A stretch of DNA of 64,000 nucleotides from sequence record NC_028927.1; one strand, 5' to 3'. Of the stretch, positions 55,888 to 60,547 are shown one piece after another. Every line of letters starts with the position of its first letter. Position 1 is the first letter of the stretch. The stretch comes from Escherichia phage slur02. Made by a program: the position numbers and the translations under genes. Below the pieces are notes generated by a model. The model was not told the DNA's origin and searched no databases. It saw only the letters and a program-made list of their open reading frames with translations.

Positions 55888-56088
55888 ATGGTACAAAAAT
55901 TAATGGCACTTGTTGATGCCATAAAAGGTAATAAAAAACGTATAGCTTTTACTATTTCTGCTATGGTAGGAATTTTACTCTGGAACTTTATTTTATCACC
56001 TGTTGCAATTGCACATGGTATTAATATTCCAGTAGTTACTCTTGATACATTCGTAGATTTAGCATTTGCTTTAGTTGGGTTAATTTAA
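55888..56088 (+). CDS. small membrane protein candidate (66 aa), plus strand, convergent with gene 61
   Basis: Strong SD AAGGAGG 5 nt before the ATG; two hydrophobic segments; stop codon overlaps the gene 61 stop on the opposite strand. Confidence 0.45.
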   Translation: MVQKLMALVDAIKGNKKRIAFTISAMVGILLWNFILSPVAIAHGINIPVVTLDTFVDLAFALVGLI

Positions 56089-57113
56089 ATCTTAGCATAT
56101 TTAGATAGCCGCATTTTAGCCATCAACCCCTGGGCAATATTATTTTTCATATATTCCATAATTTGTTCAGGGGTTGCACCTTCCTTTCTAATCATATCAT
56201 TAACATCTTTTGATTTCCAGGGAGATTTATCCCAAAACATAACCCTTTCTCCTGCATCAACTAATTTAGTCATTCGCTTAATAGTGTCAGGATGACGAGG
56301 TTCATTATCTAAAACCCACACTCGTCTATCTTTAAATGGAACAACTTCTAGGTCTAATTGACCACCCGTAATAGCTATACCATTTTCAATAAAAAGTGAA
56401 TCTATAGGTCCTTCTAGAACATATACATCACCATCTTTAACTCGTTCGACTCCATAGATTTTTGTTGCTTCAGGATAAGCTTTGATAGTGATATATTTTT
56501 GGGGAGCATCTTTCTTTAATGCACGTCCTTGAAAAGACTCAGCTTTTCCATTAGCATTATAAATTGGAATAACAAGACGAGGCTCAGGTATTTCCTTTTT
56601 ATATGTTCCCGGTGCTATGCTATTAACTAATTTAGGCCATTCAGTTGTAAACCAAAGATATTTCCATTTATCCTTTGGAATACAACGAGCTTTTACATAT
56701 TTTATAATTGGATGGTCTTCCGCCAGTTTATCTAATCTAACACATGACGGAAGAGATTTAATTATTTTCTTCTCAGGTTGTTTAGGAAGTTCTTTAGGTT
56801 TTTCTACTGGACGACTTTTACCTTTTTCTTTTCTTATTTCAAAGATATACTCACGATATAAATCAGGTTCAAACTCCTTTAAATATATTCCGATTGGTGC
56901 ATGATAGTTACAGTTATAACAATGAATATTTCCTTCATTATTATCACCATAATACCATCCACGAGCTTTATTCTGGTCGGTTTTTGAATCTCCACAAACA
57001 GGACATCTAAACCGTAATTTAAAAGTTGAACTATTATTTACTTGTGTGAATTTAGGTAAATGAGCTAATGCACGGTATGCAAACTCATTATCAATCCAAG
57101 GTATTGATGACAT
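56085..57113 (-). CDS. 61: gp61 DNA primase (342 aa)
   Basis: N-terminal zinc ribbon CPVCGDSK ... CYNC; Toprim region; 342 aa as T4 gp61. Confidence 0.9.
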   Translation of the reverse strand: MSSIPWIDNEFAYRALAHLPKFTQVNNSSTFKLRFRCPVCGDSKTDQNKARGWYYGDNNEGNIHCYNCNYHAPIGIYLKEFEPDLYREYIFEIRKEKGKSRPVEKPKELPKQPEKKIIKSLPSCVRLDKLAEDHPIIKYVKARCIPKDKWKYLWFTTEWPKLVNSIAPGTYKKEIPEPRLVIPIYNANGKAESFQGRALKKDAPQKYITIKAYPEATKIYGVERVKDGDVYVLEGPIDSLFIENGIAITGGQLDLEVVPFKDRRVWVLDNEPRHPDTIKRMTKLVDAGERVMFWDKSPWKSKDVNDMIRKEGATPEQIMEYMKNNIAQGLMAKMRLSKYAKI

Positions 57114-57115
57114 TT

Positions 57116-57278
57116 TTACTCTTCTTTTTCTTTAGATTCCTCTTTTTTCTTTTTAGGAATCTGTTCAGGGCCTTTATTTACTACAGCGCCTGACGTTGTT
57201 CCAATAGAGATATTTTCAGGATTACCACCTGAATCTCCAGCGACCATATCTTCTTTAATAAATTCTTTATATGTTTTC
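57116..57278 (-). CDS. possible small protein (approx 54 aa), 61.1-like
   Basis: Hand translation MKTYKEFIKEDMVAGDSGGNPENISIG...; stop lies 2 nt before the gene 61 ATG; below track cutoff. Confidence 0.35.
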
Positions 57279-57328
57279 ATATTAACCTCTATTCATAAAA
57301 GCATTAAAAATTTGGTCATCAATAGATG
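57279..57328. repeat. direct repeat copy 1 (approx 46 bp)
   Basis: attaacctctattcataaaagcattaaaaatttggtcatcaatagat, near-identical to the copy at approx 57639. Confidence 0.8.
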
Positions 57329-57638
57329 GAATAGCAACCTTTTCGGCATCATTTAGCAAATCATTAATTTCATCAGATAGCATAACACATGTGCCTTTAT
57401 TTCCTGTAATTGTTACTGCACAATTACGAACGTTTTCTTTATCAAATTTTAGGTTAATATTTTCGTAGTGAAAATCCTTTAATGCCGAATATATCTTTAA
57501 AATGAAATTGTCTTTTACTACAATAAACCCAACTTCACTATTAAAACGTGGTTCATGGAAACTGTAATAAACCTTTTCATCTATGAAATCGTATGAAATT
57601 TTTTCCATTTTTAAATATGAAAATTCAGAACTATACAT
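57282..57638 (-). CDS. hypothetical protein (118 aa), paralog of the C-terminal half of the next ORF
   Basis: Shares motif YxSF...VG-F/I-x-VKDN-x-I and an identical C-terminal tail SIDDQIFNAFMNR with ORF 57640..58266. Confidence 0.5.
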   Translation of the reverse strand: MYSSEFSYLKMEKISYDFIDEKVYYSFHEPRFNSEVGFIVVKDNFILKIYSALKDFHYENINLKFDKENVRNCAVTITGNKGTCVMLSDEINDLLNDAEKVAIPSIDDQIFNAFMNRG

Positions 57639-57686
57639 ATTAATCTCTATTCATAAAAGCATTAAAAATTTGGTCATCAATAGAAA
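57639..57686. repeat. direct repeat copy 2 (approx 46 bp)
   Basis: attaatctctattcataaaagcattaaaaatttggtcatcaatagaa; one mismatch to copy 1. Confidence 0.8.
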
Positions 57687-58266
57687 CATTTACTTTAGAC
57701 TGTTTTTCAGATGGCAATTCATATCCACATATTACAATTTTATGATCAATATCAAAATACACAGAAGCAATATGATTAATGATATTTTCAGTGAAGTCTA
57801 AATCGACATCAATATCTTTTTGACCAAATCCCAGAGGATAAATAATGCGAGTAATTCGATTATCTTTAACAAAGATTCCACCGACATACTCTGTACTGCG
57901 TTTAAAGTCTACACGCCGACGAAATGAAAAATATTCAGGCTCTTTATGAGCTCGGCTCATAGGACACAACGAATAACTAGAATAAGAGATGTCAAATCCT
58001 ACGCCTTCGATATGAGCCAAAGTGTCATGATTAAACCAATTATAATCGTACGCCAAATCCATTAGATTATAATATGTAAAAGGCACCGGATTAACATCAT
58101 TAGTCACAAGCATGTAATTAGCAACTGCTATAATTTCATTGTTTTTAACGAATACAAACCGTGATTGATGCGAATGACCTGGACCCGCGTTTTCACGATT
58201 AATGATATAACACTGGGCACCTTTATATTTGTATGTATCTTTGCACTTGTGCATTTGATAGAGCAT
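57640..58266 (-). CDS. hypothetical protein (208 aa) with internally repeated FVKxN domain, 61.2-like position
   Basis: Internal repeat RFVFVKNNEIIAVANY / GGIFVKDNRITRIIY; C-terminus duplicated in the adjacent ORF. Confidence 0.55.
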   Translation of the reverse strand: MLYQMHKCKDTYKYKGAQCYIINRENAGPGHSHQSRFVFVKNNEIIAVANYMLVTNDVNPVPFTYYNLMDLAYDYNWFNHDTLAHIEGVGFDISYSSYSLCPMSRAHKEPEYFSFRRRVDFKRSTEYVGGIFVKDNRITRIIYPLGFGQKDIDVDLDFTENIINHIASVYFDIDHKIVICGYELPSEKQSKVNVSIDDQIFNAFMNRD

Positions 58267-58559
58267 TATTCACCTACCACTTCAGCGATGATATTTTTGT
58301 TATTAAAGTTTTTATCGCAATACAGAACATAATTATACTGCATTACACCACCAGACTTAAGTTGTTTTTGCACTTCAGCTTTCATTTCAGGGCGATCGCG
58401 CTCAACGATATTCATAATATCTGCTTCAATTTGAGTTTCAACTTCAGTCTGATCCGCAGTCATAGACCATTCGCACAAATCTTTATCATAACCTGCCATA
58501 GCAGGCTGAGCAGCACAAGAAGCTAAAGCAAAAATTGTGGCAAAGATAAATTTTTTCAT
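58266..58559 (-). CDS. sp: Spackle (Sp) periplasmic superinfection-exclusion protein, 97 aa
   Basis: Signal peptide MKKFIFATIFALASCAAQPAMA; 97 aa as T4 Sp; position between 61 and 41. Confidence 0.8.
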   Translation of the reverse strand: MKKFIFATIFALASCAAQPAMAGYDKDLCEWSMTADQTEVETQIEADIMNIVERDRPEMKAEVQKQLKSGGVMQYNYVLYCDKNFNNKNIIAEVVGE

Positions 58560-58587
58560 GATAATCTCCTCAGTAATTTATGTTTAT

Positions 58588-58617
58588 ATAGTATCTCAAT
58601 TTCCAACAAAAGTAAAC
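58588..58617 (-). promoter_or_regulatory. T4-type early promoter (GTTTAC-N18-TACTAT)
   Basis: Minus-strand acTGTTTACttttgttggaaattgagaTACTATataaac upstream of sp. Confidence 0.5.
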
Positions 58618-58619
58618 AG

Positions 58620-58919
58620 TTATTTTAAAACTTCTGCGTAATCACATGTTACAAACTGTTTCTCTAGCTTAACGATCTTACGAAAATACCTTTTACACTG
58701 ACGAATCTGTCGCTTCGTAGGACGTACAGCAAACTTAATAAATTCCACTCGACCAAATGGAGGACTTTCTTCTGCTGGAATATCTAACACCAATTCCCAC
58801 GTATCTGCAATAAGTGCTTTGAATTGCGTATTTTTCCTGACGTTATACGGAGTAGGTTTAAATAAAACAATATGCATATTATCCTCGGCAATCCACTTCA
58901 CATACTTTCTTGTCATCAA
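58620..58919 (-). CDS. hypothetical protein (99 aa), 61.4-like
   Basis: ORF track. Confidence 0.5.
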   Translation of the reverse strand: MMTRKYVKWIAEDNMHIVLFKPTPYNVRKNTQFKALIADTWELVLDIPAEESPPFGRVEFIKFAVRPTKRQIRQCKRYFRKIVKLEKQFVTCDYAEVLK

Positions 58920-59061
58920 TGAAAGCTTTAACTAATGCTTTATTAACTTCAGCATACTGAGTAGTAACCCATTGAACGTCATCTTTCATCATTGTGGTTT
59001 CTTTAGTAAACATGCTTTCATTCTTAAACCACCCCATAAAAACTACCTTTACCAATTCCAT
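58879..59061 (-). CDS. dmd: Dmd (discriminator of mRNA degradation; antitoxin against RnlA/LsoA), 60 aa
   Basis: 60 aa; sequence recalled as T4 Dmd (MELVKVVFMGWFKNESMFTKE...); next to gene 41. Confidence 0.8.
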   Translation of the reverse strand: MELVKVVFMGWFKNESMFTKETTMMKDDVQWVTTQYAEVNKALVKAFIDDKKVCEVDCRG

Positions 59062-59080
59062 AACAATCTCCTCATTTAAC

Positions 59081-59110
59081 CAACAAGACTACTATACCAT
59101 AGTCTCGTCA
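59081..59110 (-). promoter_or_regulatory. T4-type early promoter (GTTTAC-N18-TATAGT)
   Basis: Minus-strand ttaGTTTACaagctgacgagactatggTATAGTagtc upstream of dmd. Confidence 0.5.
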
Positions 59111-59119
59111 GCTTGTAAA

Positions 59120-60547
59120 CTAAAATTTTAATTCATTCGCCAAAGCATCTAACTGAGCTCGAGTGGATTCATTTCTTTGATAGCGATTCTGCTCAGCCTG
59201 AATCTGTTGTGAACCTGCTACTTCACTCACTTCAGTTGGAGTAGAATCTTGTTCAATTTCTACCCATTTCTGATTTCCCTTTTGAACACCCATCAAAAAC
59301 TTATTCCACTTATTCTTATCGCCATATCGTGATTTGATTTGCTTAATGAGTTGTTGTTCAGCAGCTGCTAGCTCCTCAGTTTCAATGACCGCAAGCATAA
59401 AATCGGCTGTTGCTGGAAGACCAGCAGATTCTGCAATATCGCTCATGTTAACATCAGAAGAATCCCAAGCCTGTTTGCCGACCTGTGCTGCAGTCCAAAG
59501 AACAGTTTCGGTTTCAACAGCCAGAGCACGCAATTCCTCTGCAATAGCTTTAACAGTTGTGTAACTATTTTCTGAATAAACTCTAATGCGGCAAGATTTA
59601 CAAATACCTAGATAGTCGACAATAATGATTGTTGGAACAAAATTCTTTTTGAGCTTCAATTCATTCAAGAGAGACCTGAATGTATTAGCATCTGCTCCAC
59701 CAGTAGGATACTGTTTAACGATTAAACGACCAAGAGTAGATTTCTCACGCCATTTTTCCATTTTTCCTTTATACTCAGCGTAAGAAATATGCCCATCATC
59801 AATGTCATCAAGAGAAACATCAAGCATATTAGCATCAATACGTTTCGCACAGACTTCTTCAGCCATTTCCATGGAAATGTAAAGAACGTTATGACCAAGC
59901 TGCAAATAATCTGCTGCCAATGAACACAATCCTAATGACTTACCAACGTTAACGCCAGCCATTAAAACGTTCAGTGTTCCAGTCTCAGCTCCGCCTTTAG
60001 TAATTTTGTTTAGAATTCTGAGTTTAAATGGAACCTTACGAGCTTTATTCATATAAGATAGCCAACGCGCTTCATAGTCATCCATCCAATCATGACCAAC
60101 GTAGCTATCAAATGAAATTGATAATGCTTGGCGCATGATGTCAGGAATAGCACCAACATCCGGCATTTTCTTATTTCGTTTTTCCGGAGGAAGCTCAGCA
60201 TTAGTTTGAATTTCGATTATTTTAGACGTAGCATTAAACATCGCCCTTTGCTGAACATATTTTTCTGTTTCTTTTATTAACCAACTGTGGTCTTCCGGAG
60301 AATCAGCTAGTTTTGAAATAAGTGTTTTTACACCAGAATATTCTGTTTCAGTAAATGAACTATTTTCTAATGCAACATTTAACGCATTAATAGATGGAAC
60401 GCTATGATACTCATTAACATGAGATTTAATTAATTTGAATGTATTTTTAGCTGGACCACTTTCAAAATATTCTGAATCCATATATGGCCAAACTTTTGAA
60501 AAATAAGCTTGATCAAATATGAGATGAGAAAGAATAATTTCTACCAC
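59120..60547 (-). CDS. 41: gp41 replicative DNA helicase (DnaB-like), 475 aa
   Basis: Walker A GVNVGKS; 475 aa as T4 gp41. Confidence 0.95.
   Translation of the reverse strand: MVEIILSHLIFDQAYFSKVWPYMDSEYFESGPAKNTFKLIKSHVNEYHSVPSINALNVALENSSFTETEYSGVKTLISKLADSPEDHSWLIKETEKYVQQRAMFNATSKIIEIQTNAELPPEKRNKKMPDVGAIPDIMRQALSISFDSYVGHDWMDDYEARWLSYMNKARKVPFKLRILNKITKGGAETGTLNVLMAGVNVGKSLGLCSLAADYLQLGHNVLYISMEMAEEVCAKRIDANMLDVSLDDIDDGHISYAEYKGKMEKWREKSTLGRLIVKQYPTGGADANTFRSLLNELKLKKNFVPTIIIVDYLGICKSCRIRVYSENSYTTVKAIAEELRALAVETETVLWTAAQVGKQAWDSSDVNMSDIAESAGLPATADFMLAVIETEELAAAEQQLIKQIKSRYGDKNKWNKFLMGVQKGNQKWVEIEQDSTPTEVSEVAGSQQIQAEQNRYQRNESTRAQLDALANELKF

Follow-up and report, generated by a model that had tools for sequence, protein, structure and literature searches.

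A near-identical 3' end shared by adfA and a half-size AdfA-like gene bounds a variable counter-defence slot in T-even phages

Two adjacent genes of Escherichia phage slur02 (NC_028927.1), located between sp (spackle) and 61.1, end in almost the same DNA sequence while the rest of their sequences is highly diverged, raising the question of how such an arrangement arose and what keeps the two ends alike. The first gene encodes a protein of 208 amino acids (aa), AdfA or gp61.2 of T4, and the second a 118-aa protein, referred to here as ORF118. We analysed this locus in a 64,000-nucleotide (nt) window of the slur02 genome, whose numbering is used for all positions. The original prediction, made from the sequence alone, had proposed a recent tandem duplication or recombination as the origin of the repeated end. 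The reading that we prefer, with a probability of roughly 78%, is that two old tandem paralogues of the AdfA family have the repeat as their common 3' end, that recombination keeps the tails alike and that the repeats serve as crossover points for gene cassettes.

A 49-nt repeat at the ends of adfA and ORF118

A repeat finder delimited a direct repeat of 49 nt, with 48 of the 49 positions identical and a spacing of 358 nt, which extends the ~46 bp noticed before and shifts its borders by 2-3 nt. These two copies are the only ones in the window when up to 3 mismatches are allowed in a pattern search, and none are expected from 100 shuffles. The coding strand of each copy reads TCT ATT GAT GAC CAA ATT TTT AAT GCT TTT ATG AAT AGA G[G/A]T TAA T ATG, corresponding to 13 identical codons (SIDDQIFNAFMNR), a differing last codon, a TAA stop, a 1-nt spacer and the ATG of the next gene, which is ORF118 behind the AdfA tail and 61.1 behind the ORF118 tail. 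The C-terminal tails of the two proteins, which had been called identical, are so for 13 codons, while the last residue is Gly (GGT) in ORF118 versus Asp (GAT) in AdfA. The first 35 nt of the repeat encode a conserved C-terminal amphipathic helix (S-I-D-D-Q-I-F-N-A-F-M-N), and the last 14 nt form a junction element, J (TAGAGGTTAATATG), that comprises a ribosome-binding site, the stop of one gene and the start of the next. J occurs only at its two repeat positions in the window and is therefore not a generic T4 junction. The features of the slot are as follows:

58266-58559, minus strand: sp (Pfam PF25676, E=1e-44), the upstream edge of the variable slot, with its stop codon overlapping the ATG of adfA
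57640-58266, minus strand: adfA (T4 gene 61.2), 208 aa
57636-57684, minus strand: repeat copy 2, with the last 14 codons of AdfA (SIDDQIFNAFMNRD), TAA, the 1-nt spacer and the ORF118 ATG
57636-57649, minus strand: junction element J TAGAGATTAATATG, with a weakened ribosome-binding site (GAGA), stop and ORF118 start
57282-57638, minus strand: ORF118 (RB32ORF033c-like, phrog_4122), 118 aa, a single-domain AdfA-like paralogue
57278-57326, minus strand: repeat copy 1, with the last 14 codons of ORF118 (SIDDQIFNAFMNRG), TAA, the 1-nt spacer and the 61.1 ATG
57278-57291, minus strand: junction element J TAGAGGTTAATATG, with ribosome-binding site GAGG, stop and 61.1 start
57116-57280, minus strand: 61.1, 54 aa, the downstream edge of the variable slot

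The 208-aa gene is adfA (61.2): its product matches Pfam PF23813 ('Anti-DarT factor A') over positions 1-210 of 211 (E=3e-136; 451.9 bits with a cutoff of 27), is 98% identical to its cluster representative and ~97% identical to T4 gp61.2, and the orthologue annotated as 61.2 in T4 occupies the same place between sp and 61.1/61 (96.7% nucleotide identity to T4 across the region). The suggested identity with T4 61.2 as an anti-DarTG factor is thus correct and the link had already been published, 61.2 having been equated with the anti-DarT factor gene adfA (PMC9391042; PMC11825919); both papers cite LeRoux et al. 2022 for the description of AdfA. When 1.84 billion representative proteins were searched exhaustively by HMMER with an AdfA profile, AdfA itself and fragments were the only matches; a search of the AdfA sequence against all PDB chains gave no match at E<=1, and the family appears to be confined to T-even-like phages.

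ORF118 is annotated in GenBank as 'RB32ORF033c, similar to gp61.2' and simply as '61.2' in T2 and PP01. It belongs to phrog_4122 and its family is narrow, with 5 clusters at 90% identity, all of them at least 74% identical. ORF118 is a real gene under purifying selection, as homologues at 60% identity or more are found in 297 phage records and the ratio of non-synonymous to synonymous substitution rates (dN/dS) is 0.09-0.34 in comparisons with four homologues.

A probable old, half-size paralogue of AdfA

ORF118 resembles the C-terminal half of AdfA, as had been predicted: BLASTP aligns it to AdfA residues 109-207 at E=9e-9 with the tail and gives E=0.002 without it. With the tail ORF118 also scores 34.1 bits against the Pfam AdfA model (cutoff 27; E=2.3e-8; model positions 113-211), and the ORF118 clusters have PF23813 as their Pfam pre-assignment. 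When the tails were removed, hhalign paired the two proteins at P=8e-4 over 39 columns centred on an FVKDN hairpin. Using the AlphaFold2 model of ORF118 (pLDDT, the predicted local distance difference test, of 81) to search a viral structure library by Foldseek, we recovered an AdfA-type protein (E=7e-5) and a 145-aa protein of phage VR25 (E=1e-4), and in the reverse search the AdfA model found an ORF118-type protein (E=1e-3), the models of ORF118 and AdfA both including the tail helix. The homology of the body of ORF118 to AdfA apart from the tail is thus weak, but consistent across BLASTP, hhalign, Foldseek and the order of secondary-structure elements, and ORF118 is probably homologous to the AdfA C-domain.

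The AdfA model (pLDDT 70) predicts an N-domain (~aa 1-104), a C-domain (~aa 105-194) and a tail helix (aa 196-205), whereas ORF118 lacks this two-domain architecture of ~210 aa, its 118 residues forming one unit that covers the C-terminal half of the Pfam model only. The layout predicted for ORF118 is five strands, a helix (67-78), a strand, a second helix (89-101) and the tail helix (106-115). The N-half of AdfA, its C-half and ORF118 would have the same order of elements, five strands followed by a helix, and in all three FVK[DN]N would occupy the turn of the hairpin of strands 3 and 4:

58114-58161, minus strand: FVKxN hairpin motif 1 RFVFVKNNEIIAVANY, AdfA N-domain, aa 36-51
57838-57882, minus strand: FVKxN hairpin motif 2 GGIFVKDNRITRIIY, AdfA C-domain, aa 129-143
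57489-57533, minus strand: FVKxN hairpin motif 3 VGFIVVKDNFILKIY, ORF118 aa 36-50

The proposed internal duplication of the 208-aa protein is plausible on the grounds that the predicted elements appear twice in the same order, yet at the sequence level its statistics are weak (BLASTP E=0.005, hhalign P=4e-4), and it is the weaker of the two relationships when set beside that of ORF118 to the AdfA C-domain. The same applies to the idea of a triplicated FVKxN domain, a plausible one for which the predicted secondary structures agree while the sequence statistics are weak. Structure prediction, which had been proposed as a check on the repeated domain, returned a predicted element order common to both AdfA halves and ORF118.

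Outside the tail the two genes have diverged widely. Their bodies share 42% of nucleotides over the aligned codons and ~30% of residues, and the same codon is used at 9 of the 22 identical residues that have degenerate codons, which is the level expected by chance. Moreover, Gaprivervirus (VR25, VR20) has homologues of ORF118 at 46-48% identity, directly before a tail copy. Because of the low body identity, the codon mismatch and these Gaprivervirus homologues, the paralogy seems to be old, in that it either predates these genera or reflects movement of the gene between them, and only the 3' tail would be young or homogenised. A recent tandem duplication of the 3' half of adfA, in which ORF118 is a young copy and the repeat is duplicated DNA that has not diverged, would account for a tail that is 48/49 identical and for the colinearity of ORF118 with the C-terminal half of AdfA, but it would not account for bodies so far apart with codon choice at chance level, nor for the different tail-bearing gene that the Gaprivervirus homologues adjoin. 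A body evolving fast under positive selection could reconcile a young copy with this divergence, but would need dN/dS values well above 1 rather than those observed.

Probable tail exchange and the four states of the slot

The identity of the tails exceeds what the encoded peptide demands. From the codon usage of the window itself, peptide conservation alone predicts ~5.6 differing codons among the 13, and the probability of finding none is ~3e-4. The synonymous sites of the tail are not frozen either, as they vary between genera and AdfA subtypes: compared with the Tequatrovirus tail, those of Mosig-, Dhaka- and Gaprivervirus, carried by members of the AdfA, ORF118 and 145-aa families, show several synonymous differences. 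In Tequatrovirus itself, each of the two Asp-codon haplotypes is present on both paralogues, GATGAC on the 208-aa AdfA and the 118-aa ORF118, and GACGAT on a 210-aa AdfA and a divergent 119-aa ORF118; in Gaprivervirus the two tail-bearing genes share lineage-specific Lys, CGA, GCC and GACGAC. Since the identity goes beyond peptide conservation and the haplotypes are common to both paralogues, the tails have most likely been exchanged between the paralogues by recombination.

We also considered a role of the repeat as a nucleic-acid element, either an mRNA hairpin for translational coupling or a recognition site for a protein or endonuclease, since synonymous-site identity is above expectation and the repeat contains an imperfect inverted repeat (UCUAUUGAUGA...UAUGAAUAGA) that could form a hairpin ending just before the ribosome-binding site. 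RNA folding of the repeat, with and without flanks, gave ordinary energies that are not significant (z = -0.2 to -1.4), 22-81 of 200 shuffles folding as well, and the tails of other genera alter the stem without compensation. A promoter and terminator scan of positions 56900-59200 yielded counts as in shuffles and no signal at the repeats, and we consider such an element very unlikely.

Alignment to relatives revealed that the slot between sp and 61.1 varies in gene content. Four states were distinguished by junction-specific megablast, in which the counted records include RefSeq/GenBank duplicates:

AdfA then ORF118: 152 records, including slur04, RB18, RB33, RB51 and Sf21
ORF118 only: 141 records, including T2, RB14 and PP01
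AdfA only: ~135-150 records, as estimated from an evenly spaced listing of 538 matching records, including T4 and T6
Neither gene: for example RB9 and G3F7

Scans of IMG/VR added few loci (15 and 7). In a four-way alignment, T4 is shorter than the window by exactly one repeat unit of 358 nt, the 118-aa gene thus being an extra one relative to T4, whereas in RB14 adfA is missing except for the last 14 nt of its tail and RB9 has just the 14-mer, with one mismatch, between the sp stop and the 61.1 start. Every indel boundary in the slot, as judged from this alignment and from the junction sequences, lies at the tail or at J. The 14-mer TAGAGGTTAATATG is also found behind the sp stop codon in the ORF118-only phages, and with one mismatch (TAGAGGCTAATATG) behind sp in phages that carry neither gene.

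A record of Yersinia phage phiD1 (NC_027353: 17457-19739), in which AdfA and ORF118 are followed by a 33-aa tail fragment and a second ORF118, was rejected as a case of triplication. The extra copy begins right after a repeat copy with 'GAAAACNGATCGGNNGA' (Ns followed by an Illumina-adapter-like GATCGG) and contains further Ns, so that the 49-nt repeat has probably led to a mis-assembly in this record.

The last two codons of the tail track the downstream gene and not the upstream one at every locus examined. Before 61.1 the tail always ends in AGA-GGT, and before ORF118 in either AGA-GAT (Arg-Asp) or AAA-GGT (Lys-Gly); both of these endings weaken the GAGG ribosome-binding site (at window positions 57643-57648 and at the corresponding positions of 12 tandem loci), whereas the GAGG before ORF118 is intact in ORF118-only phages. 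The weakened site may serve to tune expression of ORF118 or may be a trace left by the events that produced the arrangements, and the codon pattern is compatible with the T4 state having arisen from tail to tail, without proving it. If the two tails of a tandem recombined, ORF118 (358 bp) would be lost and the arrangement seen in T4 would remain, and if an AdfA-only and an ORF118-only phage crossed over unequally from J to J, the reciprocal products would be a tandem and an empty slot, as in RB9. Amplification and deletion of DNA via short homologies are known for T4 in the same region (PMC9391042). We infer that recombination or gene conversion between the paralogues keeps the tails near-identical and that the repeats act as crossover points at which cassettes are added and removed.

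The distribution of the four states also bears on the alternatives. The absence of ORF118 from T4 would suit its birth by recent duplication of the adfA 3' half, but the 141 records in which ORF118 stands alone, without adfA, do not; this origin is highly improbable, and of the two possibilities originally raised recombination is the better one. Purifying selection alone, acting on the peptide and on the ribosome-binding site, stop and start, might instead preserve the tails, with boundaries at gene ends simply because whole genes survive. The peptide is indeed invariant in three families and four genera, codon usage is AT-biased, so that a match is fairly likely at any one codon, and the two tails of some tandems are not identical, with 2-3 differing nt. 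Such selection would, however, have to meet the joint probability of ~3e-4 for all 13 codons in a tail whose synonymous sites vary between genera and AdfA types and whose synonymous haplotypes recur on both paralogues. Nor would it explain why J stays behind sp after the peptide-coding part has been lost (exactly where ORF118 remains, with one mismatch where neither gene does), why J is present nowhere else in 64 kb and why the T4 difference equals exactly one repeat period. We therefore regard selection as the sole cause as unlikely.

Several observations weigh against old paralogues whose tails recombine. No recombination event was observed and the states are not ordered into gain or loss. 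No clean microhomology was found for the deletion that removes adfA in ORF118-only phages; TGAATA was rejected as a candidate, as its predicted junction is 4 nt shorter than the observed one. Variable synonymous sites are few, so the argument from haplotypes present on both paralogues rests on little data, and the two tails of RB51- and Sf21-type tandems differ at 2-3 nt, homogenisation therefore not being continuous. The homology of the ORF118 body to AdfA is statistically modest, as the Pfam match needs the tail (ORF118 without its 14-residue tail gives no Pfam AdfA match at E<=1) and the hhalign probability is low. Finally, according to published data, T2 (ORF118 only) cannot plate on DarTG1 cells when it lacks adfN, the gene of another anti-DarT factor (see below); ORF118 therefore has no neutralising effect on that DarT1 at native levels.

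Specificity, relatives and genomic neighbourhood

Binding and neutralisation of DarT1 have been published for RB69 AdfA(R164H), the R164H change allowing DarT1 binding, and for ectopically expressed T4 AdfA; deletion of T4 adfA gave no phenotype, also as published. By alignment and direct sequence read, His165 of slur02 AdfA corresponds to the Arg of the RB69-type sequence P0020, which is residue 164 of RB69 AdfA (numbered from the start codon taken from primer 40 in PMC11257639), so the 208-aa protein has His at the DarT1-neutralising position. In ORF118, the aligned residue is Cys73, which is invariant in the ORF118 family, neither His nor Arg being present at the specificity position:

57772-57774, minus strand: AdfA His165 codon, equivalent to RB69 AdfA residue 164
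57420-57422, minus strand: ORF118 Cys73 codon, aligned with AdfA His165

More speculatively, ORF118 may be a stand-alone toxin-binding inhibitor that keeps the helix of the AdfA C-domain on which the DarT1 specificity residue is located; with this Cys in place of His or Arg, its target would then probably differ from that of AdfA. Our literature search found no paper dealing with ORF118. T2 is described in the DarTG literature as naturally lacking an adfA homologue; its genome (MH751506: 18028-18384) has a 118-aa AdfA-like gene, 93% identical to the ORF118 of the window, directly behind sp. A small correction to the literature follows: T2 'lacks adfA', yet carries the half-size paralogue.

Two observations concern AdfA itself. 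The 210-aa AdfA type (RB51, Sf21 and other loci, compared with window positions 58100-58290) is a mosaic of Mosigvirus (RB69-like) sequence, to which its first ~170 nt correspond together with the end of sp, and T4-like sequence in the 3' two-thirds, therefore placing a recombination breakpoint between genera inside adfA. BFVD entry A0A449C4E3 from Yersinia phage fPS-65, with 157 aa and 97% identity to AdfA, is either a truncated allele or the product of a mis-called start codon.

The tail peptide ends three otherwise diverged families and is invariant across four genera. AdfA (208-216 aa, two domains) is found in Tequatro- and Mosigvirus, ORF118 (117-119 aa, one domain) in Tequatro- and Gaprivervirus, and a 145-aa family (phrog_8539) in Dhaka- and Gaprivervirus, where it lies directly behind sp (VR25, VR20 and Dhakavirus loci). 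In Dhakavirus the 145-aa gene and its tail are followed by the downstream gene, and in Gaprivervirus an ORF118-type cassette is inserted exactly behind that tail. The 145-aa proteins are linked to the AdfA family by the tail, by synteny and by one Foldseek match (E=1.2e-4); their comparison with AdfA was not significant by hhalign (P=0.09-0.16), gave E=0.057 by BLASTP and yielded no Pfam match. The N-terminus of the 145-aa protein (KNPNAQAY) resembles that of AdfA (KFPDAQCY) and its middle resembles the hairpin of the AdfA C-domain, with statistics that are not significant; the protein could be an internally shortened AdfA.

A wider role for the tail can be put forward tentatively, and we hold it to be rather doubtful: it might be both a docking or assembly helix of diverged toxin inhibitors and a DNA joint by which inhibitor 'heads' are swapped, stacked and dropped behind sp during co-infection, with ORF118 and the 145-aa protein acting on DarT variants not yet identified or on other toxins. 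On this basis ORF118 and the 145-aa protein are candidate inhibitors against DarT and other toxins, and the locus, if so interpreted correctly, would represent a small cassette system for counter-defence genes in T-even phages. AdfA is one of few characterised anti-DarTG factors, and near-identical phages provide natural knock-outs: T4 has AdfA only, T2 ORF118 only, RB9 neither, and slur04, RB18 and RB33 both. The repeat is in addition a practical hazard for genome assembly, with the phiD1 record as an apparent case.

The protein family and the region are already known, while the literature searched appears to contain no description of the half-size paralogue as a family member in its own right, nor of the tail and 14-mer in the role of boundaries of a four-state cassette polymorphism. 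The 208-aa gene is a typical AdfA in its full-length Pfam match, its place between sp and 61.1 and the His at the specificity position; ORF118 shares the C-terminal domain pattern, the tail and the slot, and differs in its half size, the absence of the N-domain, the Cys at the specificity position and a Pfam match that depends on the tail.

A comparable arrangement is that of the PeSL elements, non-coding units of an early promoter plus a stem-loop, which Arbiol and colleagues reportedly described in 2010 as mobile regulatory cassettes in hyperplastic regions of T4-type genomes, with short repeats flanking small open reading frames and modular shuffling proposed. Short repeated sequences also flank small open reading frames here, but the slur02 repeat is mostly coding plus junction, with no promoter-like site or significant hairpin at the repeats.

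The same defence is countered by AdfB of phage ICP1 and by AdfN (T4 gp30.3, a NADAR protein), AdfN removing ADP-ribose from DNA while AdfA binds DarT (PMC10760071, PMC11825919). T-even phages thus layer several anti-DarT genes, although no sequence or fold relationship of AdfB or AdfN to AdfA or ORF118 was detected.

The wider region had been predicted to hold counter-defence genes, and it corresponds to the T-even anti-toxin-antitoxin island of dmd, tifA/61.4 and adfA/61.2 (Srikant et al., eLife 2022, PMC9391042). The neighbourhood is the same and in both cases short repeats mediate, or here would mediate, gain and loss of counter-defence genes; however, that study dealt with laboratory amplification of dmd-tifA at 2-10-bp homologies, whereas the four-state polymorphism of the present locus is bounded by a naturally occurring coding repeat of 49 nt and its 14-nt end. 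The slur02 region is 100% identical to that of Escherichia phage slur04 and 96-99% identical to that of hundreds of Tequatrovirus genomes. All its genes lie on the minus strand, in the transcription order 41, dmd, the tifA/61.4 homologue, sp, adfA, ORF118, 61.1 and 61; those outside the slot are:

59120-60547, minus strand: gene 41
58879-59061, minus strand: dmd
within 58620-58919, minus strand: tifA/61.4 homologue (Pfam DUF7279)
56085-57113, minus strand: primase gene 61

The homologues of tifA (61.4; ToxN inhibitor) and dmd (RnlA inhibitor) thus lie just upstream of the slot (58620-59061). A strong sigma-70-like promoter match is located in front of dmd (59119-59091), and the scan of 56900-59200 found no terminator-like site before gene 61, so the whole gene set may be co-transcribed. 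At the downstream edge, the 54-aa 61.1 (57116-57280) matches the C-terminal third of the 155-156-aa phrog_2086 family, found at the corresponding place in Mosigvirus, another case at this locus in which a short gene matches the end of a longer one.

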